This document shows positions 24,429-37,120 of a stretch of 64,000 nucleotides of DNA, piece by piece (within the stretch, counting starts at the first letter, position 1; each line of letters opens with the position of its first letter). A program made the position numbers and the translations under genes. The notes beneath the pieces were generated by a model. The model had not been told where the DNA came from. It did not search any database and saw only the letters and a list, made by a program, of their open reading frames with translations. Source of the DNA: Escherichia coli (GTDB lineage: Bacteria > Pseudomonadota > Gammaproteobacteria > Enterobacterales > Enterobacteriaceae); NCBI RefSeq assembly GCF_003018255.1, contig NZ_CP027440.1; one strand, given 5' to 3'.

Positions 24429-25102
24429 TATGCTGTCCTTCTTTTCAAGTAGCTGACCAACAACGACGCGCTAAGGCTAATAACGAAATAAACAAATCCG
24501 GCAAACAGGATCATCTCAACCTGCGTACCATCACGCTCACCAATGGTTGAAGCGGTACGGAAGAAATCGGCCAGAGATAACACATACACCAGCGAGGTAT
24601 CCTGGAACAGTACGATGCCCTGAGTGAGCAGCAGCGGCACCATCGCGCGGAAAGCCTGCGGCAGAATAATCAGTTTCATCGACTGCCAGTGAGTCATCCC
24701 CAACGCCAGCGCGGCGCTCGACTGACCACGGGAAATACTTTGAATACCGGCACGGATAATCTCTGAATAGTAGGCCGCTTCAAACATCGAAAACGCCACC
24801 ATTGCCGAAATTAAACGGATATCATTTTTTGGCGATAATCCCAGCACGTTTTGCAGAAATCCCGGCACAATCAGGTAAAACCACAGCAAAACCATGACTA
24901 AAGGAATCGAGCGGAATACGTTAACATAGGCTTTGGCAAACCACGCAACAGGCGCAAAGCTGGACAAGCGCATCACCGCCAGCATGGTGCCCCACAAAAT
25001 ACCAATCACCACTGCCGTGACGGTGATTTTCAGCGTGATCACCAGCCCGTCGAGCAGATATGGCAGGGAAGGAACAATGGAACTCCAGTCAAACTCGTAC
25101 AT
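24428..25102 (-). CDS. gltK: glutamate/aspartate ABC transporter permease GltK (224 aa)
   Basis: ORF track; 1-nt overlap with gltL. Confidence 0.94.
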
Positions 25103-25842
25103 TATTTGCCCCCCATGTTGCCGGGCAGACGAACTTTACGTTCAACCAGCGTCATCACCAGCATGATAAAAGCGTTAATCAATACATACGCCAGCGTGAT
25201 GGCGGTAAACGACTCCCAGGCGTGGGCCGAGTAATCGAGCAATTTACCCGCCTGCGCCGCCATATCCACCAGACCGATAGTCGAGGCGATGGCGGAGTTT
25301 TTCACCAGGTTCATCATCTCTGAGGTCATCGGCGGGACGATAACGCGATAAGCATTAGGCAGCAGTACGTAGCGGTAAGCCTGCGGTAGCGTCAGACCCA
25401 TCGCCAGCGCGGCATTTTTTTGCCCACGCGGCAGCGACTGAATAGCGGCGCGTACCTGTTCGCAAACACGGGCGGCGGTAAACAGCCCCAGGCAGAGCAT
25501 GGATGAAAGGAAAAACTGAATATTGGGATCCAGCTCTGCCTTAAACCACATGCCGATTTTCTCTGGCAGCAGCTCCGGGATCACCAGGTACCAGGTAAAG
25601 AATTGCACAATCAACGGCACGTTGCGGAACAGTTCGACATACAACGTACCCAGACCGGAGAGAAAACGGTTTGGAACGGTACGTAAAATGCCGAAAAATG
25701 AACCGACGAGGAAAGCGATAATCCAGGCGCAGATCGACAAAGCGATCGTCACCTGAAAACCACTCCAGATCCAACCAAGATAGGTGGTGTTGCCGAACGG
25801 GGCTTGTTGTAAAAAAATACCCCAGTTCCAGTCTATAGACAT
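25102..25842 (-). CDS. gltJ: glutamate/aspartate ABC transporter permease GltJ (246 aa)
   Basis: ORF track; SD GGAG 7 nt upstream. Confidence 0.94.
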
Positions 25843-25854
25843 AAATCTACTCCA

Positions 25855-25889
25855 GAAAAAAGAGGGTAGCAGCGTTAACTGCTACCCTC
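25855..25889 (-). terminator. intrinsic terminator in the gltI-gltJ spacer (SroC 3' end)
   Basis: 11-bp stem gagggtagcag / ctgctaccctc (25862-25889), loop cgttaa, U6 on the minus strand (plus A-run 25856-25861) running into the gltJ SD. Confidence 0.8.
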
Positions 25890-26015
25890 GAAGATTGTTA
25901 CCCAGCGTATTGCGGTTTTCAGGCCCGATGGGGAACGACCACCAGGCGTATAGTCTGTCCGTGCTACGTAACAATCGAGAGGGCTGGAATTTCCGCCCCT
26001 GGTTCTTGTAATTAG
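25855..26015 (-). ncRNA. sroC: SroC sRNA region (processed from the gltI-gltJ spacer); ends approximate
   Basis: gltI-gltJ spacer ending in a minus-strand intrinsic terminator; SroC is known to derive from this spacer. Confidence 0.55.
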
Positions 26016-26920
26016 TTCAGTGCCTTGTCATTCGGTTCTTTGAACAGTGCTTTCATTTCGTCTGACAGTTCGAAATTCATGTTCAGGTTTTTCGGCGGAA
26101 TTGGATTTTTGAACCACTTATCAAACCATTTTTCCGCTTCACCGGAGGTCTGCACCTGAGCGATGGTATCATCCATCAGCTTTTTGAACTGCGGATCGTC
26201 TTTACGCAACATGCAACCATAGGCTTCCTGAGACTGCGGCTTGCCGACGATTTCCCAGTTGTCTGGTTTCTTCGCTTTCGCACGTTCACCGGCCAGCAGA
26301 GCATCATCCATCATAAAGGCAACGGCACGACCGCTTTCCAGGGTACGGAAAGAGTCACCGTGATCTTTGGCGCTGATGATGCGCATATTCATTTTTTGCT
26401 CTTCATTCAGTTTGTTGAGCAAAACTTCAGAGGTGGTGCCGGAAGTGACGACTACGGCTTTGCCTTTCAGGTCGGCAAAATCTTTGATATCGCCGCCCTT
26501 TTTGGTCAGCAGGCGCGTACCGACCACGAAAATAGTGTCAGAGAAAGCCGCCTGTTTTTGGCGTTCGGCATTGTTGGTGGTAGAACCGCATTCAAAATCG
26601 AAAGTGCCGTTTTGCAGCAGTGGAATACGGTTTTGTGAGGTGATCGGAATCAATTTCACCTGTAAGTCTGGTTTGTTGAGTTTCTTTTTCACTGCTTCAA
26701 CAATGGCGTTGGAGTAATCCTGCGAGTAGCCCACCACTTTTTGCTGATTGTCGTAATAAGAGAAAGGTACTGAAGATTCACGGTGACCGACGACAATCAC
26801 GCCGTTTTTGGCGATTTTGTCCAGCGTACTGCCTGCTGCCGGGGCGGCGTCATCTGCCTGTGCCAGTCCTGCGGAAAGCGCCAGGGCCAGGATTGCTGTG
26901 GCAGGTTTACGTAATTGCAT
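26012..26920 (-). CDS. gltI: glutamate/aspartate periplasmic binding protein GltI (302 aa)
   Basis: Track ORF is N-extended; known start MQLRKPATAILALALSAGLAQA at 26920 with SD AAGGAG. Confidence 0.93.
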   Translation of the reverse strand: MQLRKPATAILALALSAGLAQADDAAPAAGSTLDKIAKNGVIVVGHRESSVPFSYYDNQQKVVGYSQDYSNAIVEAVKKKLNKPDLQVKLIPITSQNRIPLLQNGTFDFECGSTTNNAERQKQAAFSDTIFVVGTRLLTKKGGDIKDFADLKGKAVVVTSGTTSEVLLNKLNEEQKMNMRIISAKDHGDSFRTLESGRAVAFMMDDALLAGERAKAKKPDNWEIVGKPQSQEAYGCMLRKDDPQFKKLMDDTIAQVQTSGEAEKWFDKWFKNPIPPKNLNMNFELSDEMKALFKEPNDKALN

Positions 26921-26963
26921 ATCCAACTCCTTTATCTTCTGCGTTAAGAACGCATGGATACCC

Positions 26964-26984
26964 GTTGTGAGTGTTTGTGTTGTT
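26964..26984 (-). promoter_or_regulatory. C/A-rich element in the gltI 5' UTR, candidate GcvB pairing site
   Basis: mRNA sense AACAACACAAACACUCACAAC about 45-65 nt upstream of the gltI AUG. Confidence 0.5.
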
Positions 26985-27374
26985 ATCATCTGCAACTTTA
27001 TTGTGCAGTGTTGTGCTTGTTAGGTAACATTTAGTTTGGCTAAATGTAAAGATATTGCTGTTTTATTGTTTGTTTTTGCGAGATGCGCCGCACCATTCCG
27101 AAGCAAAATTCTTAAATCGCACCTTTTTGGTGCTACCGCTGATTTGTGGTGGTGCAACCCGGTTGCGTCGCGGCTGATTTCATTGCTTACACAGTAAATA
27201 AAGCAACTTACATGCCAAAAAATACTTATAGGTGAATTAATTACGATTGTAATGTTAGGCTGAAATAGTCATATTTCGGACAGGGTTATCTTTTCGGCAT
27301 GGGACGTTTGCCGGGATGATAACTGCACACGGGAAAAATGCTTTTTACCTGTCTTTTCAAGGAAGAATCACCTT

Positions 27375-29252
27375 ATGTCTGCATCTTCGGTTAAGCCGTT
27401 AAATGTTCAATTACCCGCAATAACCCTTATCCTTTTTGCGCTCTGTGTTGGGATATTTTGTTACCTCGCACAATGGATGAGTTATGAAGAAGTCGATCAA
27501 TCCGCACTTATCCATCTCGGTGCTAACGTTGCTTCTCTCACGTTGTCGGGTGAATCCTGGCGCTTATTGAGCAGTGTCTTTCTGCACAGCAGTGTTTCTC
27601 ATTTGCTGATGAATATGTTTGCACTCCTGGTGGTGGGGGGAGCGGTGGAACGTATTCTGGGGAAATGGCGACTCCTGATTATCTTGTTATTCTCCGGCAT
27701 CTTTGGTGGGCTGATCAGCGCCTGTTATGCGTTACGCGAAAGTGAGCAGATAGTCATCAGCGTTGGGGCATCCGGGGCAATTATGGGAATAGCGGGCGCT
27801 GCGATAGCAACACAGCTTTCTTCAGGTGCGGGTACACACCATAAAAACCAGCGGCGAGTATTTTCTCTGTTGGGTATGGTGGCGCTGACACTGTTGTATG
27901 GTGCCCGGCAAGCAGGAATAGATAACGCTTGCCACATTGGCGGCCTGATTGCGGGGGGCGCGTTGGGTTGGCTGAGTGCGCGTTTAGTTGGGCAAAATCG
28001 GCTCGTTACGGAAGGCGGGATTATTGTTGCGGTCACTCTTCTTCTGACCGGGACTATCTGGTTTGTGCAGCAGCAGATTGATGAATCAGTTTTACAGGTC
28101 AGGCAAAGCCTGCGTGAAGCGTTTTATCCGCAGGAGATTGAACAAGAGCGACGACAAAAAAAGCAGCAGTTAGTGGAGGAGCGCAACGCCCTCAGGGAAA
28201 CATTATCCGCTCCGGTAAGTCGTGAGCAGGCCAGTGGTGATTTACTCGCTGAGATTGCCGATATCCATGATATGGCGATCAGTCGGGATGGTAATACGTT
28301 GTATGCCGCAATTGAAAACACCAACAGCATTGTTGTTTTCGACCTCGGACAAAAGAAAATCCTGCATACCTTTACAGCGCCCATAGCGAAAGAAAAGTCA
28401 GTCAAACATTGTGGTGGCTGTAAAGATCAGGGCGTCAGATCGCTGGCATTAAGCCTGGATGAAAAGTTGATTTATGCGACTTCATTTGAAGCGAATGCAG
28501 TATCGGTCATTAACGTGGCGACGGGGGAGATTATTCAGTCGATTACCACCGGCGCCCATCCTGACAGCCTTATCCTCTCGCGTGATGGCACAAAAGCCTG
28601 GGTGATGAATCGCACCAGTAATAGTGTGTCAGCCATTGATCTGGTGACTTATCAGCATGTGACGGATATCCCGCTGGAGAAATACGACGGGACGGGGACG
28701 AGCGGTAAACCAGGCGCCTGGGTTATGGCACTTTCCCCGGATGAAAAAACATTGTTGATACCCGGTATGGTCAGAGGCGACATTGTACGCATCAATACCA
28801 TCACGCATCAGAAAGAAGACTTTCCCACAGGTGATGCGCGTGGTATCGTTTCTGCGATGGGATTCCGACCAAAAAATGGCGAGATTATTTTTGCCGATAG
28901 CCAGGGGATTTCACGTATAAGCGTAGGGGATCAACAAGCCAGCATTATGACGCAATGGTGTAGCAGGAGCGTTTATTCCGTTGAGGGTATTAGCCCGGAC
29001 GGTCAATATTTAGCGTTGGTGTCATATGGCCTGCAAGGTTATGTCATCCTGCTCAATATTAATGCCGGGCAGATTATTGGCGTTTATCCTGCCAGCTACG
29101 TTAATCACCTTCGTTTTTCAGCGGATGGTAGAAAGATATTTGTTATGGCGAAGAACAGGTTAATCCAAATGGACAGGACGCGCTCGCTTGATCCGCAGGC
29201 AATTATTCGGCATCCCCAATATGGCGATGTGGCTTGTATCCCTGAACCGTAA
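27375..29252 (+). CDS. rhomboid-family intramembrane serine protease fused to a C-terminal beta-propeller-like repeat domain (625 aa); accessory gene
   Basis: ATG 27375; GlpG-like TM2 H71/H76/N80 then GGAVE; GASG with Ser133 (nt 27771-27773); CHIGG with His187 (nt 27933-27935); predicted 7th TM helix; C-terminal [L/I/F]S-x-DG-type repeats. Confidence 0.8.
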   Translation: MSASSVKPLNVQLPAITLILFALCVGIFCYLAQWMSYEEVDQSALIHLGANVASLTLSGESWRLLSSVFLHSSVSHLLMNMFALLVVGGAVERILGKWRLLIILLFSGIFGGLISACYALRESEQIVISVGASGAIMGIAGAAIATQLSSGAGTHHKNQRRVFSLLGMVALTLLYGARQAGIDNACHIGGLIAGGALGWLSARLVGQNRLVTEGGIIVAVTLLLTGTIWFVQQQIDESVLQVRQSLREAFYPQEIEQERRQKKQQLVEERNALRETLSAPVSREQASGDLLAEIADIHDMAISRDGNTLYAAIENTNSIVVFDLGQKKILHTFTAPIAKEKSVKHCGGCKDQGVRSLALSLDEKLIYATSFEANAVSVINVATGEIIQSITTGAHPDSLILSRDGTKAWVMNRTSNSVSAIDLVTYQHVTDIPLEKYDGTGTSGKPGAWVMALSPDEKTLLIPGMVRGDIVRINTITHQKEDFPTGDARGIVSAMGFRPKNGEIIFADSQGISRISVGDQQASIMTQWCSRSVYSVEGISPDGQYLALVSYGLQGYVILLNINAGQIIGVYPASYVNHLRFSADGRKIFVMAKNRLIQMDRTRSLDPQAIIRHPQYGDVACIPEP

Positions 29253-29253
29253 G

Positions 29254-29278
29254 AAAAAAGGGCATGATAATCATGCCC
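29254..29278 (-). terminator. intrinsic terminator of lnt (ybeZ-ybeY-corC-lnt operon end)
   Basis: palindrome gggcatgat-aa-tcatgccc (29260-29278) followed on the minus strand by U6 (plus A-run 29254-29259). Confidence 0.75.
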
Positions 29279-29329
29279 CACAACTCAATGAGAAAGTATG
29301 TTTTGTTCATGCCGGATACATCAGGCACA

Positions 29330-30868
29330 TTAATGTTTACGTGCTCGCAGACTCATCAGCACAGCTGCAAAACCAAACAGTGCCGTCAGCACCCACAGCG
29401 GCCAGTTGCCGGTACGTGCGTACGGTGTGAGTCCGGTAGTCGGCGTCACGTTAGTGGTTAACACCTCGCGGGTGAACTGCGGGATCATCGCCTGAATCTC
29501 ACCCTGCGGGCCAATCACCGCCGTAATGCCGTTGTTGGTGCTGCGCAACAGTGGGCGCGCCAGCTCCAGCGCACGCATTCGCGCCATCTGGAAGTGCTGC
29601 CATGGACCAATAGACTTACCAAACCACGCATCGTTGGAGATAGTCAGCAGATAGTCGGTATCCGGGCGGAAGTTATCGCGCACTTGCTCGCCGAGAATGA
29701 TTTCGTAGCAAATGGCCGCAGTAAGTTGAATGCCATTCAACGACAGCGGTGGCTGAATATATGGTCCGCGGCTGAATGAAGACATCGGCAAATCAAAGAA
29801 CGGTGCTAACGGACGCAGTATCGACTCCAGTGGGACAAACTCGCCAAACGGCACCAGATGGTTTTTGTTATAGCGATCGGCTGATTCATAGCTGTACGGT
29901 GCGCCTTTACCCAGTGTGATGATGGTGTTGTAGGTATCGTAGCGGTTCTGTTTATTGAGACGCGCGTCGACAATCCCGGTGACCAGCGAGCTCCCTTTAT
30001 CGCGCAACTCACCGTCCAGAGCTTTGAGGAACGGTTGCTGATTAATTTCCAGATCGGTTATCGCCGACTCCGGCCAGATAATCAACGATGATTTGCCCAT
30101 CAGCGGTGCCGTTGCGTTGTAGTATATCTTCAGCGTATTAAGTAGCTGGTCTCCGTCCCATTTCAGCGATTGCGGAATATCGCCCTGAACCATCGAAACC
30201 TGAATAGTTTTTTCCGGTTGCGGGGTAAACCACTGGATGTAACGCAGCGGGAAGGGAAGGGCAAACAGCACGACGGCCACCACCAGCGGACGCCAGTTGC
30301 GTTTGACCAACGCCAGTGCCAGCAGGCCGCTAACCATCATCAGCAGGAAGTTAATGGCTTCCACGCCCATTATCGGTGCCAGCCCTTTTAACGGGCCATC
30401 AATCTGGCTATAGCCGAACTGTAACCACGGGAAGCCTGTTAGTACCCAACCGCGCAGAAACTCGGTCACTTGCCAGAGAGCAGGGGCGGCAATCGCCACG
30501 CGCAGCCAGGTGGTTTTCGGCCACAGACGCGACAGCACGCCAGCAAACAGTCCGGTATACAGCGACAAATACGCCGCCAGCAGTACCACCAGGAAGATGT
30601 TAACCGGGCCAGGCATTCCGCCAAAGGTCGCGATGCTGACATAGACCCAGTTAATACCGCTGCCAAAGAGGCCAAATCCCCAGCAAAAGCCAATAGCGGC
30701 AGACTGGAGTGGACGGCGGTTAAAGGTCAACGCCTGAAGCCCCATCAGCGAAATAATCGCCGCAGGCCAGACGTCGTAAGGAGAGAAGGCCAGCGTTCCG
30801 CAGGCACCGAATAATAACGCCAGCAGCAGGCGAATGCGCTGGCGTTCAATTAATGAGGCAAAAGCCAT
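29330..30868 (-). CDS. lnt: apolipoprotein N-acyltransferase Lnt (512 aa)
   Basis: ORF track; recognised sequence. Confidence 0.95.
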
Positions 30869-30892
30869 GTAGTTATCTATCCAGTTTCGGTT

Positions 30893-31771
30893 TTATTCAT
30901 CCAGCTTCGGCTGGGGTGAGTCATCCGGGATTTTGACATGAACCTGAATAATACGCCGACTGTCGGCCATCGCCACTTTGAACTGGTAACCGTCGATGTC
31001 GATGGTTTCGCCACGCGCCGGAAGATGCCCAAATGCCTGCATCACCAGACCACCGATAGTGTCAACCTCTTCATCGCTAAAGTGGGTGCCGAACGCTTCG
31101 TTGAAGTCTTCAATAGAAGCCAGTGCGCGCACGGTCCAGGTATGACGACTCAGCTGACGGAAGTCGATATCATCTTCTTCGTCATACTCGTCTTCAATCT
31201 CACCAACAATCAGTTCCAGGATGTCTTCAATGGTCACCAGACCGGAAACCCCACCGAATTCGTCAATGACGATCGCCATGTGGTAACGCTGAGAGCGAAA
31301 CTCTTTCAGCATCCGGTCTACGCGCTTACTTTCAGGAACGACAACCGCCTGACGTAACACTTTGTCCATGCTGAAGGCTTCAGCATCGCTGCGCATAAAC
31401 GGCAGCAAGTCTTTCGCCATCAGAATCCCTTCAATGTGATCTTTGTCTTCGCTAATCACCGGGAAACGTGAGTGGGCGGACTCGATGATGACATCAAGGC
31501 ATTCGTCCAGCGTCTGGTTGCGTTTCAGGGTAATCATCTGGGAGCGGGGGATCATGATGTCGCGAACGCGTTGGTCTGCGATGTCCATCACCCCTTCGAG
31601 CATATCGCGCGTATCTTCGTCGATAAGGTCGTTCTGCCCGGAATCACGGATCAGCGCCAGCAGTTCGTCACGGTTTTTCGGTTCACCGTGGAAAAGTTGG
31701 CTGAGTAACAGGGAGAAAAATCCCTTCTTGTTGCTTATCGTGTCACTACTGTGTGAATTGTCGTCGCTCAT
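30893..31771 (-). CDS. corC: Mg/Co efflux-associated CBS-domain protein CorC/YbeX (292 aa)
   Basis: ORF track; recognised sequence. Confidence 0.93.
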
Positions 31772-31860
31772 GGCGTCGTATGGGTTCTCATGTTAGTTAA
31801 TCAAAACGCCGTCGTTAATCACCAACGGCGGGGACGTCTGCCAGTCAAATGCCTGGCAAA

Positions 31861-32328
31861 TTATTCTTTCTCGGCAATGTACGGATCCTCATAGCCCAGA
31901 GCAAGCATAATCTCTGTTTCGATGGCTTCCATTTCTTCTGCTTCGTCATCTTCGATGTGATCGTAACCTAACAAATGCAGACTGCCGTGCACCACCATAT
32001 GCGCCCAGTGCGCCTCCAGTGGTTTGCCTTGCTCCTGAGCTTCCTTCTCAACCACCTGACGGCAGATAACCAGATCGCCCAGTAGCGACATTTCCATGCC
32101 AGGCGGTACTTCAAACGGGAAGGAGAGCACGTTGGTCGGCTTATCCTTACCGCGATAGGTCAGATTCAGACTGTGGCTTTCGGCGGTATCGACCACGCGA
32201 ATAGTCACTTCCGATTCTTCCTGAAACTGCGGGATCACCGCATTCAGCCATGTCTGAAACTGGCTCTCTTCCGGTAACCCGGAATTATCTTCACATGCCA
32301 GTTGTAAATCGAGGATCACCTGACTCAT
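31861..32328 (-). CDS. ybeY: endoribonuclease YbeY (155 aa)
   Basis: ORF track; HxxxHxxxH metal motif ([11 protein letters not shown]). Confidence 0.95.
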
Positions 32329-33365
32329 TTTTGTTCCTGTTCTTCGCGCTTGCGTTCTGCTGCCAGCGCCGCTTTACGTTTTTGTTCGGCTTCTTCCCAG
32401 GCTTCATAGGCGTTAACGATACGCGCCACCACCGGGTGACGAACCACGTCTTCGCTGTGGAAGAAGTTAAAGCTGATCTCTTCGACATCAGCCAGTACTT
32501 CGATGGCATGACGCAAACCAGACTTGGTATTACGCGGCAGGTCGATCTGTGTGACGTCGCCGGTGATAACCGCTTTTGAGTTAAAACCGATACGGGTCAG
32601 GAACATCTTCATCTGTTCGATGGTGGTGTTCTGGCTCTCATCAAGAATGATAAACGCGTCGTTCAGCGTACGACCACGCATATAGGCCAGCGGTGCGACT
32701 TCAATAACGTTGCGCTCAATCAGTTTCTCGACTTTCTCAAAGCCCAGCATTTCAAACAGCGCGTCGTACAGCGGGCGCAGATACGGGTCTACTTTCTGGC
32801 TTAAATCGCCAGGCAGGAAGCCCAGTTTCTCACCGGCTTCTACTGCCGGACGAGTCAGCAGAATACGGCGAATTTCCTGACGCTCCAGGGCATCAACTGC
32901 CGCAGCCACTGCCAGGTAGGTTTTACCCGTACCCGCCGGGCCAACGCCGAAGGTAATGTCATGGTCGAGAATATTGGCGATGTACTGCGCCTGGTTTGGC
33001 GTGCGCGGCTTAATTACGCCGCGTTTGGTTTTGATATTGACCGCTTTGCCGTACTCCGGCACGCTCTCCGCGCTTTGCTCCAGTACCCGCGCTTCTTTAA
33101 TCGCAAGGTGGATCTGTTCCGGTTCGATATCCTGAATCTGACCGCGCATCGGGGCAGTATCGACATACAGGCTACGCAGAATGTCTGCCGCAGCGGTGAC
33201 GCAAATCGGACGGCCGGTCAGTTTAAAGTGGTTATCGCGGCGATTGATTTCGATGCCGAGACGGCGTTCGAGTTGTTTGATGTTGTCATCAAACGGGCCG
33301 CACAGGCTCAACAGACGCGCATTGTCTGCTGGCTCCAGGGTGATTTCGCGAGTGTCTATGTTCAA
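32325..33365 (-). CDS. ybeZ: PhoH-like ATPase YbeZ (346 aa), TTG start
   Basis: Track ORF starts at ATG 33404 with no SD; TTG at 33363-33365 has SD AAGAGGA 5 nt upstream; Walker A GPAGTGKT. Confidence 0.8.
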
Positions 33366-36416: not shown

Positions 36417-36491
36417 TGGCTGGGGTACGAGGATTCGAACCTCGGAATGCCGGAATCAGAATCCGGTGCCTTACCGCTTGGCGATACCCCA
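36417..36491 (-). tRNA. glnX: tRNA-Gln (anticodon CUG), 75 nt
   Basis: Full match to the tRNA-Gln cloverleaf with CCA end; anticodon loop UUCUGAU. Confidence 0.95.
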
Positions 36492-36528
36492 ACTGGGTGC
36501 ACTTACAAGGTAAGCGTCTTGAATAAAT

Positions 36529-36603
36529 TGGCTGGGGTACGAGGATTCGAACCTCGGAATGCCGGAATCAGAATCCGGTGCCTTACCGCTTGGCGATACC
36601 CCA
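36529..36603 (-). tRNA. glnV: tRNA-Gln (anticodon CUG), 75 nt
   Basis: Identical copy of the preceding tRNA-Gln(CUG). Confidence 0.95.
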
Positions 36604-36651
36604 ACAAATTGGTTTTTGAATTTGCCGAACATATTCGACACATTCAGAATT

Positions 36652-36728
36652 TGGTGGCTACGACGGGATTCGAACCTGTGACCCCATCATTATGAGTGAT
36701 GTGCTCTAACCAACTGAGCTACGTAGCC
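36652..36728 (-). tRNA. metU: tRNA-Met elongator (anticodon CAU), 77 nt
   Basis: Match to GGCUACGUAGCUCAGUUGGUUAGAGC...CCA, anticodon loop CUCAUAA. Confidence 0.95.
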
Positions 36729-36743
36729 AGATTGTTTCTTCGA

Positions 36744-36818
36744 TGGCTGGGGTACCTGGATTCGAACCAGGGAATGCCGGTATCAAAAACCGGTGCCTTA
36801 CCGCTTGGCGATACCCCA
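36744..36818 (-). tRNA. glnW: tRNA-Gln (anticodon UUG), 75 nt
   Basis: tRNA-Gln body with anticodon loop UUUUGAU. Confidence 0.95.
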
Positions 36819-36852
36819 ATAACCGGGCGGTGAACCGCTTATTCGAAGAATA

Positions 36853-36927
36853 TGGCTGGGGTACCTGGATTCGAACCAGGGAATGCCGGTATCAAAAACC
36901 GGTGCCTTACCGCTTGGCGATACCCCA
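36853..36927 (-). tRNA. glnU: tRNA-Gln (anticodon UUG), 75 nt
   Basis: Identical copy of the preceding tRNA-Gln(UUG). Confidence 0.95.
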
Positions 36928-36950
36928 TCCGTACAACGCTTTCTGGTGAA

Positions 36951-37035
36951 TGGTGCGGGAGGCGAGACTTGAACTCGCACACCTTGCGGCGCCAGAACCT
37001 AAATCTGGTGCGTCTACCAATTTCGCCACTCCCGC
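36951..37035 (-). tRNA. leuW: tRNA-Leu (anticodon UAG), 85 nt
   Basis: Long-variable-arm class II tRNA, anticodon loop AUUUAGG, CCA end. Confidence 0.95.
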
Positions 37036-37043
37036 AAAAAAGA

Positions 37044-37120
37044 TGGTGGCTACGACGGGATTCGAACCTGTGACCCCATCATTATGAGTGATGTGCTCTA
37101 ACCAACTGAGCTACGTAGCC
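37044..37120 (-). tRNA. metT: tRNA-Met elongator (anticodon CAU), 77 nt
   Basis: Identical to metU; first tRNA of the operon. Confidence 0.95.

Follow-up and report, generated by a model that had tools for sequence, protein, structure and literature searches.

The closest described relative of the gene analysed here is Rhom7 of Shigella sonnei, an active rhomboid protease whose activity is abolished by either of the substitutions S133A and H187A and for which Phobius predicts seven transmembrane domains (TMDs) (PMC7232013). It is among the few bacterial rhomboids for which substrates have experimental support; upon overexpression these are HybA and FdnH, both as orphan subunits (PMC7232013). 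At native levels of Rhom7 the cleavage of HybA and FdnH is undetectable and a double rhomboid deletion is without phenotype (PMC7232013) and, for these two reasons, the physiological substrate of the enzyme may be another protein. The C-terminal domain, alone or together with the seventh transmembrane (TM) helix, is dispensable for the cleavage of an artificial TatA-based substrate (PMC7232013), a result that speaks neither for nor against a function of this domain with native substrates. Two further rhomboids are pertinent. AarA of Providencia stuartii is 30% identical to Rhom7, the cores of the two being aligned in Fig EV1 of the same study (PMC7232013), and YqgP of Bacillus subtilis has a quality-control role on MgtE, in which a cytosolic N-terminal domain senses divalent cations and triggers MgtE cleavage (PMC7231995).

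We report the analysis of a 625-amino-acid open reading frame (ORF) in a 64,000-nucleotide stretch of Escherichia coli DNA, which we refer to as the window. The first-pass annotation of the window had placed the ORF at these coordinates and described it as an uncharacterised orphan, with a rhomboid core fused to a periplasmic propeller. The ORF was confirmed, with every sequence feature listed for it, and its start is as follows.

27375..29252, plus strand: rhom7 coding sequence, 625 codons and a stop, orthologue of S. sonnei Rhom7/SSON_0610.
27360..27365, plus strand: Shine-Dalgarno-like AGGAAG, 9 nt 5' of the ATG, read directly from the sequence.

The description as uncharacterised did not survive. 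In strain 2014C-3338, whose sequence is 100% identical, RefSeq carries the protein as WP_001561633.1, 'rhomboid family intramembrane serine protease'. The window protein is collinear over its full length with S. sonnei Rhom7 as machine-read from Fig EV1 of PMC7232013 (556 of the 611 readable letters identical; the same letters agree with the S. sonnei protein P0008 at 597 of 611), and it is 93% identical to P0008 at 100% coverage, about 45 of the 625 residues being different. Sequence comparison identifies the ORF as the orthologue in E. coli of Rhom7 from S. sonnei (SSON_0610, UniProt Q3Z4D6), at about 91-93% identity and, by the same measure, the two are one gene in sister lineages: they share the length of 625 residues, the Ser133/His187 numbering, the C-terminal domain and the prediction of seven TMDs, and differ in allelic substitutions and in that the C-terminal fold is left unnamed in PMC7232013. 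Since Rhom7 was published in 2020, this orthology means that the gene is already known and the protease already characterised in S. sonnei (Liu et al., EMBO J 39:e102922, PMC7232013); the cleavage assay of S133A and H187A mutants that had been proposed for the ORF is part of that work. As a whole, the account developed below, of a rhom7 allele with its catalysis, its periplasmic propeller and its evolution, is in our judgement highly probable.

The catalytic part of the protein is laid out as follows.

27375..27992, plus strand: six-TM rhomboid core, residues 1-206, from PF01694, GlpG alignments and hydropathy, with WR, H71/H76/N80, GGAVE, GASG and the TM6 His-GxxxG.
27771..27773, plus strand: codon of the catalytic Ser133, by arithmetic from the ORF start; aligns with GlpG Ser201 and is invariant in the family.
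27933..27935, plus strand: codon of the catalytic His187, by arithmetic from the ORF start; aligns with GlpG His254 and is invariant in the family.

The GlpG-like signatures reported at first pass were found as described (GGAVE at 88-92, GASG at 131-134 and CHIGGLIAGG at 186-195, besides H71, H76 and N80), and the profile search and GlpG alignment that had been recommended bear out the assignment. The Pfam Rhomboid profile PF01694 matches residues 59-201 (E=3e-29, 102.5 bits). In the alignment with E. coli GlpG, W62R63, H71, H76, N80 and GGAVE fall on W136R137, H145, H150, N154 and GGAVE, and S133, H187, G190 and G194 on S201, H254, G257 and G261; against Haemophilus influenzae GlpG (2NR9), both residues of the dyad match, with Ser133 opposite the serine of GLSG. 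Across 18 homologues, down to 23% identity, H76, N80, G131, A132, S133, G134 and H187 are invariant. The profile match, the GxSG serine with the TM6 histidine and the supporting motifs by which an active rhomboid is recognised in sequence (MEROPS S54, PF01694) are thus all present, and the profile and structure matches of the ORF are strong and not due to chance. The protein is not an orthologue of GlpG, as it scores far below the cutoffs of the NCBIfam equivalogs (TIGR04239 / NF008155; 50.8 bits against 250, and 44.9 against 335), nor is it a rhombosortase (45.6 bits with TIGR03902, whose cutoff is 84); from these comparisons, Rhom7 is placed as a rhomboid paralogous to GlpG.

Because activity has been shown for the S. 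sonnei orthologue, at about 91-93% identity and with active-site motifs fully conserved, we infer that the E. coli allele is catalytic as well. It would be an inner-membrane serine protease of family S54 with a 6+1 TM layout, in which Ser133 of TM4 and His187 of TM6 would form a dyad within the bilayer and cut single-pass membrane proteins that have helix-breaking residues in their TM helices. The enzyme may thereby serve quality control, clipping subunits of respiratory complexes that are orphaned of their partners (HybA and FdnH, upon overexpression only), and this clipping would license the further degradation of the orphans. It might be asked whether Rhom7 is mainly an adaptor or pseudoprotease, its propeller and TM core passing misassembled envelope proteins to a protease such as FtsH and its own cleavage being secondary. 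YqgP offers a precedent, as its S288A mutant acts in this way (PMC7231995), and cleavage by the Shigella rhomboids is said to 'license' degradation by other proteases (PMC7232013). We consider such a function improbable, given that the catalytic residues are invariant family-wide and that proteolysis has been demonstrated directly for S. sonnei Rhom7 (PMC7232013).

Downstream of the core lie two features that would join it to the C-terminal domain.

28002..28064, plus strand: predicted seventh TM helix, residues about 210-230; hydropathy peak at 210-228, AlphaFold helix at 209-233 and seven TMDs by Phobius (PMC7232013).
28065..28244, plus strand: charged, predicted helical linker, residues 231-290, with 9 K/R and 11 D/E; model helices at 237-250 and 253-272.

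Both had been anticipated, at residues of about 212-230 and 235-290 respectively, and need only slight adjustment. Hydropathy gives seven TM segments in all (13-31, 68-91, 100-118, 126-146, 162-180, 188-206 and 210-230), with Lys and Arg clustered in the loops predicted to be cytoplasmic. The odd number of segments and the positive-inside pattern lead to a predicted periplasmic location of the propeller: TM7 would cross back to the periplasm and the linker would hold the propeller above the membrane on that side. The relative orientation of the core and the propeller is undefined in the AlphaFold model (pTM 0.60). The protein also has conserved cysteines at positions 346, 349, 529 and 621, which are compatible with an oxidising compartment.

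The remainder of the protein is taken up by a single predicted domain.

28245..29249, plus strand: predicted seven-bladed YVTN-type propeller, residues about 291-605, and a C-terminal tail with the conserved Cys621; from TIGR02276, 1L0Q, AlphaFold and Foldseek.

The first-pass annotation had recognised here six or more YVTN/lactonase-type repeats and a CGGC motif. The latter lies at 346-349 and six repeat motifs at 302-312, 359-369, 401-411, 453-463, 539-549 and 581-591; the type of the repeats is upheld by the profile, the model and the structural search, and their number becomes seven blades. With the YVTN repeat profile TIGR02276 the protein reaches 52.8 bits, the cutoff being 27.85, and the YVTN propeller of PDB entry 1L0Q matches in five stretches with E=5e-23. 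The AlphaFold model, with a mean pLDDT of 80.4 and values of 85-95 across most of the C-terminal domain, arranges residues 289-600 in seven groups of four strands, that is, in seven four-stranded blades, and Foldseek relates it with E about 1e-16 to 1L0Q, G-beta and hydrazine synthase beta (target-normalised TM-score 0.54-0.76). On the strength of this modelling, the C-terminal domain is confidently predicted to be a seven-bladed YVTN-type beta-propeller, which supplies a fold for a part of the protein not described in the 2020 study. A literature search combining rhomboid with propeller or YVTN returned nothing relevant, and found no paper naming the fold of the Rhom7 C-terminal domain. When this domain was compared with a library of representative proteins, the matches were mostly giant YVTN-repeat proteins, aligned with blades 2-3, together with a few other rhomboid-propeller proteins (P0037, P0268); the search gave no functional lead.

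The gene stands between gltI and lnt, which had been called core genes and have matches in 5424 of 5426 complete E. coli genomes. Beyond its stop codon the sole hairpin is, as had been noted, in the orientation of lnt.

29259..29279, minus strand: GC-rich hairpin followed by a T-run, the lnt terminator, shared convergently with rhom7; from a terminator scan and the sequence.

The plus strand upstream of rhom7 showed no sigma-70 consensus promoter, the only Rfam element near the gene is sroC, on the far side of gltI, and neither flanking repeats, in the repeat searches made, nor mobility genes were found. A part in anti-phage defence was considered and dropped, PADLOC giving zero matches. So was a conserved partner gene: distant homologues lie beside a TetR-type regulator and a bgl-type PTS operon in Budvicia and beside unrelated genes in Pseudoduganella, and these neighbourhoods have nothing in common. 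Rhom7 is a stand-alone gene, as the earlier reading, which saw no partner or operon, had it.

It is also an accessory gene, again as first described, since about 40% of the complete E. coli genomes lack it, and its boundaries are defined by comparison with the gene-less strain SCU-104.

27170..29345, no strand: presence/absence segment; homology to SCU-104 ends near 27165 and restarts near 29346.

In place of this segment SCU-104 has an unrelated stretch of about 170 bp, which on visual inspection alone may be REP-like; the gene-less allele resembles a deletion into which a short unrelated sequence was filled. For K-12 the first-pass annotation had placed an IS5 copy at this position instead of the gene. 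There is indeed an IS5 between gltI and lnt in K-12 BW25113, but it did not replace the gene: the intergenic region of 1596 bp, against 397 bp in SCU-104, is accounted for by the 397 bp of the gene-less allele and a further 1199 bp of IS5 and target duplication. The IS5 of K-12 entered an allele that was already without rhom7. UMNK88 carries a frameshifted allele, another strain has an IS1 in the region and there are many clusters of truncated protein. Given its absence from about 40% of genomes and the frameshifted and IS-interrupted alleles, rhom7 is clearly dispensable, and its absence from K-12 and from this fraction of complete genomes helps to explain why rhomboid work in K-12 has seen GlpG only.

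Such a polymorphism within E. coli, with a patchy taxonomic distribution in which the distant full-length relatives among the matches listed come from Budvicia, Uliginosibacterium and Pseudoduganella, could be thought to betray a horizontally acquired island set between core genes in some lineages. We regard this as extremely unlikely. Orthologues of 48-54% identity occupy the gltI-lnt slot in Klebsiella aerogenes and on two other enterobacterial contigs, in the same orientation and with the same gene order (gltI, rhom7, lnt-corC-ybeY-phoH), and the occupation of this slot in other Enterobacteriaceae likewise disposes of a strain-specific insertion. The GC content of the gene is host-like (49.4%, against 51.1% for the window), and the lack of mobility genes and flanking repeats and the deletion-like form of the gene-less allele also argue against an island. 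In the loci where rhom7 is 48-54% identical the flanking proteins are 83-97% identical, from which we conclude that rhom7 evolves much faster than its neighbours, as far as sequence identity can tell. It would thus be a long-standing, fast-evolving and often lost resident of the gltI-lnt slot in the Enterobacteriaceae.

Frequent loss raises the question of whether the gene is by now a decaying relic in E. coli, functionless, weakly expressed and heading for loss, as might be read from the many genomes without it, the damaged and truncated alleles, the lack of a consensus promoter and the absence of a phenotype upon deletion in Shigella (PMC7232013). This is very unlikely in view of a dN/dS within E. 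coli of about 0.2, far under 1 and alike for the core, the linker and the propeller. Furthermore, the intact protein belongs to a cluster (90% identity) of 8814 sequences, the frame of 625 codons is preserved in the syntenic orthologues of 48-54% identity and the S. sonnei enzyme is active (PMC7232013). The gene is still under selection in E. coli. Its residency in the slot, its fast evolution, its frequent loss and the purifying selection upon it are new, and give a context for follow-up work.

As to what the propeller does, for which the first-pass annotation had suggested substrate capture or sensing, we would tentatively, and with somewhat less than even confidence, take it for a periplasmic protein-docking platform that lies outside the catalytic machinery and may pick out native substrates by their large periplasmic domains or hold these domains in position, or else bind a partner. 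A more specific proposal, which we put forward as doubtful, is that the propeller might be a specificity module that recognises the folded periplasmic domains of a defined class of tail-anchored envelope proteins and supplies the active site with their TM anchors. On this view an arms race or a niche-specific role, and not housekeeping, would lie behind its fast evolution and repeated loss. Candidate clients for such a module are the Tat-exported, ferredoxin-type HybA and FdnH, or else a native substrate still to be discovered. Were this proposal true, Rhom7 would be the first rhomboid of any bacterium to carry its own substrate receptor outside the cytoplasm, and any selection of substrates by the propeller would bear on the general question of how rhomboids choose their substrates.

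A propeller of this kind might, alternatively, be a sensor that binds a small periplasmic ligand or an envelope signal and gates the protease allosterically, in parallel to YqgP. Extramembrane domains do regulate other rhomboids, YqgP among them (PMC7231995; reviewed in PMC12615303), the inactivity of native Rhom7 on its known substrates in the laboratory would fit with an absent activating signal and the propeller is under purifying selection. Against this, Rhom7 without its C-terminal domain is not dead, and is not reported to be hyperactive, on the model substrate (PMC7232013); YVTN propellers are mostly modules of protein or surface interaction, the closest relatives of these blades being giant multi-repeat surface proteins; and no ligand-binding motif was identified in the propeller. 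Sensing by the propeller appears unlikely to us, and docking is the likelier of the two.

The core of Rhom7 is that of GlpG from E. coli and H. influenzae (2IC8, 2NR9), with which it shares the six TM helices, the WR of loop L1, the H-x4-H-x3-N of TM2, GGAVE, the GxSG of TM4 and the histidine and GxxxG of TM6; GlpG, however, has a cytoplasmic N-terminal domain and is without both the seventh TM helix and a periplasmic domain. In overall plan Rhom7 is like YqgP/GluP of B. subtilis and the large rhomboid-TPR family, which have the 6+1 TM arrangement with a seventh helix that puts a repeat domain outside the cytoplasm and whose cores come closest to Rhom7 in sequence among proteins that are not of its family (36-44% identity over the core). 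These proteins match Rhom7 over the core only (23-46% query coverage): the outside domain of YqgP consists of three TPR motifs, of which Pfam finds none in Rhom7, and the cation-sensing cytosolic N-terminal domain of YqgP is absent from Rhom7. AarA is a seven-TM rhomboid. It cleaves the TM segment of TatA, as Rhom7 does, but it stops at residue 281, just past the stretch aligned with TM7 of Rhom7, and has no propeller, and its role is the defined one of TatA maturation and quorum sensing. The propeller itself shares its blade motif and seven-bladed fold with the Methanosarcina mazei S-layer protein 1L0Q, E. coli YncE (3VGZ) and hydrazine synthase beta (5C2V), although strong sequence similarity to these is kept in only two or three of the blades of Rhom7 (residues about 355-436). 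These are secreted or surface proteins in which the propeller is free-standing or fused to PKD domains, whereas in Rhom7 the predicted propeller would be tethered, through TM7 and a helical linker, to an intramembrane protease.

The first-pass observation is confirmed in the sequence. The rhom7 open reading frame and every motif that had been quoted from it are present at the residues assigned to them, and the coordinates of the Ser133 and His187 codons are correct.

Features of rhom7 and its neighbours (residue positions by motif check)
27375..29252, plus strand: rhom7 open reading frame, ATG to stop, 625 aa, read from the window
9 nt upstream of the rhom7 ATG, plus strand: AGGAAG site, read from the sequence
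Residues 71, 76 and 80: H71, H76 and N80
Residues 88-92: GGAVE
Residues 131-134: GASG
27771-27773, plus strand: Ser133 codon
Residues 186-195: CHIGGLIAGG
27933-27935, plus strand: His187 codon
Residues 346-349: CGGC
Start residues 302, 359, 401, 453, 539 and 581: six '[LIF]S-x-D[GE]' blade motifs
Upstream neighbour, minus strand: gltI
Convergent neighbour, minus strand: lnt, then corC, ybeY, ybeZ/phoH and miaB

The sole terminator-like hairpin past the rhom7 stop (29259-29279) is followed by a T-run on the minus strand and is therefore oriented for lnt. Between gltI and gltJ lies an Rfam match to sroC (172.6 bits, 25854-26016, minus strand), a known sRNA that is processed out of the gltIJKL transcript. 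Elsewhere in the window the Rfam model of the cspA thermoregulator matches over its full length (136 bits, 4602-5050, plus strand), presumably marking a cold-shock gene's 5' UTR, and seven tRNA genes cluster in a stretch of about 700 bp (36420-37120, minus strand; Rfam matches of 57-71 bits).

The description of the gene as an uncharacterised 'orphan' is wrong, as rhom7 is already known. RefSeq annotates its product as 'rhomboid family intramembrane serine protease', the Shigella sonnei orthologue SSON_0610 was described and named Rhom7 by Liu et al. 2020 (EMBO J 39:e102922; PMC7232013), and a 2025 review lists Rhom7 under UniProt Q3Z4D6 (PMC12615303). The whole 625-aa sequence appears in Figure EV1 of PMC7232013, in the machine-read text of which 556 of the 611 readable letters agree with the window protein and 597 of the 611 with P0008, an S. 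sonnei database protein; P0008 and the window protein share 93% identity at 100% coverage. Seven TMDs were predicted for Rhom7, with Ser133 and His187 as catalytic residues, and a TatA-based artificial substrate is left uncut by S133A and H187A (PMC7232013); the mutants proposed in the first-pass annotation have thus already been published for an orthologue about 91-93% identical. The C-terminal domain, alone or together with TM7, is dispensable for cutting the artificial substrate, plasmid-expressed Rhom7 cuts HybA, HybO (TM segment only) and FdnH only when these are 'orphaned' from their complexes, cleavage at endogenous levels was undetectable, and a double rhomboid deletion gave no phenotype (PMC7232013).

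Pfam Rhomboid PF01694 matches residues 59-201 (E=3e-29), and the core aligns with Haemophilus influenzae GlpG (2NR9, E=6e-11, phmmer against PDB sequences), with GASG opposite GLSG and NACHIGG opposite NAAHISG. For the alignment to E. coli GlpG we used a core sequence checked for H/H/H/N/S/H at positions 141/145/150/154/201/254.

Residues of Rhom7 and their GlpG counterparts (alignment to the E. coli GlpG core)
W62R63: W136R137
H71: H145
H76: H150
N80: N154
GGAVE: GGAVE
S133: S201
H187: H254
G190 / G194: G257 / G261

Among 18 full-length homologues, with identity down to 23%, H76, N80, G131, A132, S133, G134 and H187 are invariant. Beyond the small Rhom7 family, the nearest rhomboid cores are those of the large rhomboid-TPR (GluP/YqgP-like) group. 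Assignment as a GlpG orthologue or a rhombosortase was rejected, the NCBIfam equivalog scores lying far under their cutoffs.

By Kyte-Doolittle hydropathy the protein has seven hydrophobic segments (13-31, 68-91, 100-118, 126-146, 162-180, 188-206 and 210-230), with Lys/Arg in loops 92-98, 150-164 and 202-211 and none in loop 33-62. Since GlpG has an N-in topology, this pattern predicts that the C-terminal part lies in the periplasm, beyond a highly charged stretch (residues 231-290) that is helical in the AlphaFold model.

For the C-terminal domain, TIGR02276, a model of the YVTN repeat, exceeds its cutoff of 27.85 bits with a score of 52.8, the YncE, lactonase and hydrazine-synthase-beta models match more weakly, and the search of PDB sequences finds 1L0Q, a YVTN propeller from an archaeal S-layer, with E=5e-23. 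The AlphaFold2 model, built from an 18-sequence alignment, has a mean pLDDT of 80.4 (85-95 over most of this domain) and a pTM of 0.60, and between residues 289 and 600 its beta-strands form seven groups of four. A Foldseek search of the PDB recovers propellers with seven blades (G-beta, 1L0Q, hydrazine synthase beta and TLE1; E about 1e-16). By these profile, model and structure-search results the domain is a predicted seven-bladed YVTN-type propeller, one blade of which, at about 494-528, has no canonical motif. The proposed architecture of rhomboid core, TM7 and propeller is right on profile and model evidence, and the count of 'six or more' repeats now becomes seven by the model. The word 'propeller' is absent from PMC7232013, and no relevant paper came up in full-text literature searches for rhomboid together with propeller or YVTN; the fold assignment seems to be recorded only in domain hits of databases.

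The domain contains four cysteines, 346 and 349 (nt 28410-28421), 529 (28959-28961) and 621 (29235-29237); C621 is near-invariant among homologues, and most of the distant ones keep a C-x(2-5)-C loop at 346-349. We infer only that these cysteines would suit an oxidising compartment. The loop lies between blades 1 and 2, in an insert modelled with low confidence, and is lost from the K. aerogenes orthologues, and the WC and C-terminal cysteines (529, 621) could staple the propeller closed.

At least 80% of the stretch 26900-29500 is present in 3231 (about 60%) of the 5426 complete genomes of E. coli, and nearly all the others match in the flanks only. In the gene-less strain SCU-104 homology to the window stops near 27165 and restarts near 29346, with about 170 bp of unrelated sequence between, possibly REP-like by eye only. 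The K-12 derivative BW25113 does carry the IS5 that the first-pass annotation placed at this position, inserted in the same gene-less allele rather than replacing the gene: between gltI and lnt it has 1596 bp where SCU-104 has 397 bp, and IS5 with its target duplication accounts for the difference of 1199 bp. Decay alleles also occur: the UMNK88 copy (L091 776-2652) is annotated as frameshifted, and in strain 19SZHZ869Rt an IS1 lies in the rhom7 region. The protein database contains several large clusters of truncated proteins (434-514 aa), some of which may be contig-end fragments. The C-terminal end of Lnt also varies by allele (window 29330-29345; comparison loci L002 1918-1977 and L089 2700-2800), from SLRARKH in the window to SLRQRRK in SCU-104, and strain 806883-9-2019, which has rhom7, combines an RQRRK-type end with an additional insert of about 57 bp that separates the rhom7 stop from lnt. 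On its right-hand side the indel region therefore has a junction that is itself polymorphic and extends into lnt.

Such losses might suggest a decaying relic, a reading disfavoured by pairwise dN/dS within E. coli of about 0.19-0.22 overall, alike in core, linker and propeller; all three are under purifying, if relaxed, selection. That rhom7 is an acquired island is disfavoured by synteny. Klebsiella aerogenes and two other enterobacterial contigs carry orthologues 48-54% identical in the same slot and orientation (gltI / rhom7 / lnt-corC-ybeY-phoH), which, with a host-like GC (49.4% against 51.1% for the window) and the gene-less genomes, marks the gene as an old, fast-evolving, often-lost resident and not an island. 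Clustering at 90% identity puts the exact window protein in a group of 8814 sequences, which includes entries from E. fergusonii and S. flexneri. More remote full-length relatives, 23-33% identical, are found in Budvicia, Uliginosibacterium and Pseudoduganella with unrelated surroundings, and no partner gene is conserved, judging by the neighbours in Budvicia and Pseudoduganella.

At the same Klebsiella-type loci (L084, L086 and L088 against window 25102-33365) the window proteins GltJ, GltI, Lnt, CorC, YbeY and PhoH have counterparts of 83-97% identity; beside these six neighbours Rhom7 has evolved unusually fast for a conserved slot, perhaps through relaxed constraint or through diversifying selection on its periplasmic face. 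In K. aerogenes (L084 1-1997) gltL adjoins a gene pair for two-partner secretion, encoding a TPS-domain protein and a ShlB/POTRA transporter, where the window has rihA.

In the orthologue, Ser133 and His187 catalyse intramembrane cutting of TM segments with helix-destabilising residues, and cutting by the overexpressed enzyme licenses further degradation of orphan HybA and FdnH (PMC7232013). The predicted 6+1 TM topology would place the helical linker and seven-bladed propeller in the periplasm, where the propeller may act as a platform for protein interactions, selecting or positioning native substrates or partners. It might instead be a sensor gating the protease, or Rhom7 might be an adaptor for another protease. 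The published dispensability of the C-terminal domain counts against an interaction platform, or at least not for one. The residual value of the present work lies in the explicit fold assignment and in the picture of an ancient, fast-evolving, frequently lost locus. In favour of the interaction platform, the propeller is kept under selection, the large periplasmic domains that the known substrates carry on a single C-terminal anchor would fit such a role, and in YqgP the analogous outside domain is a TPR protein-binding array.
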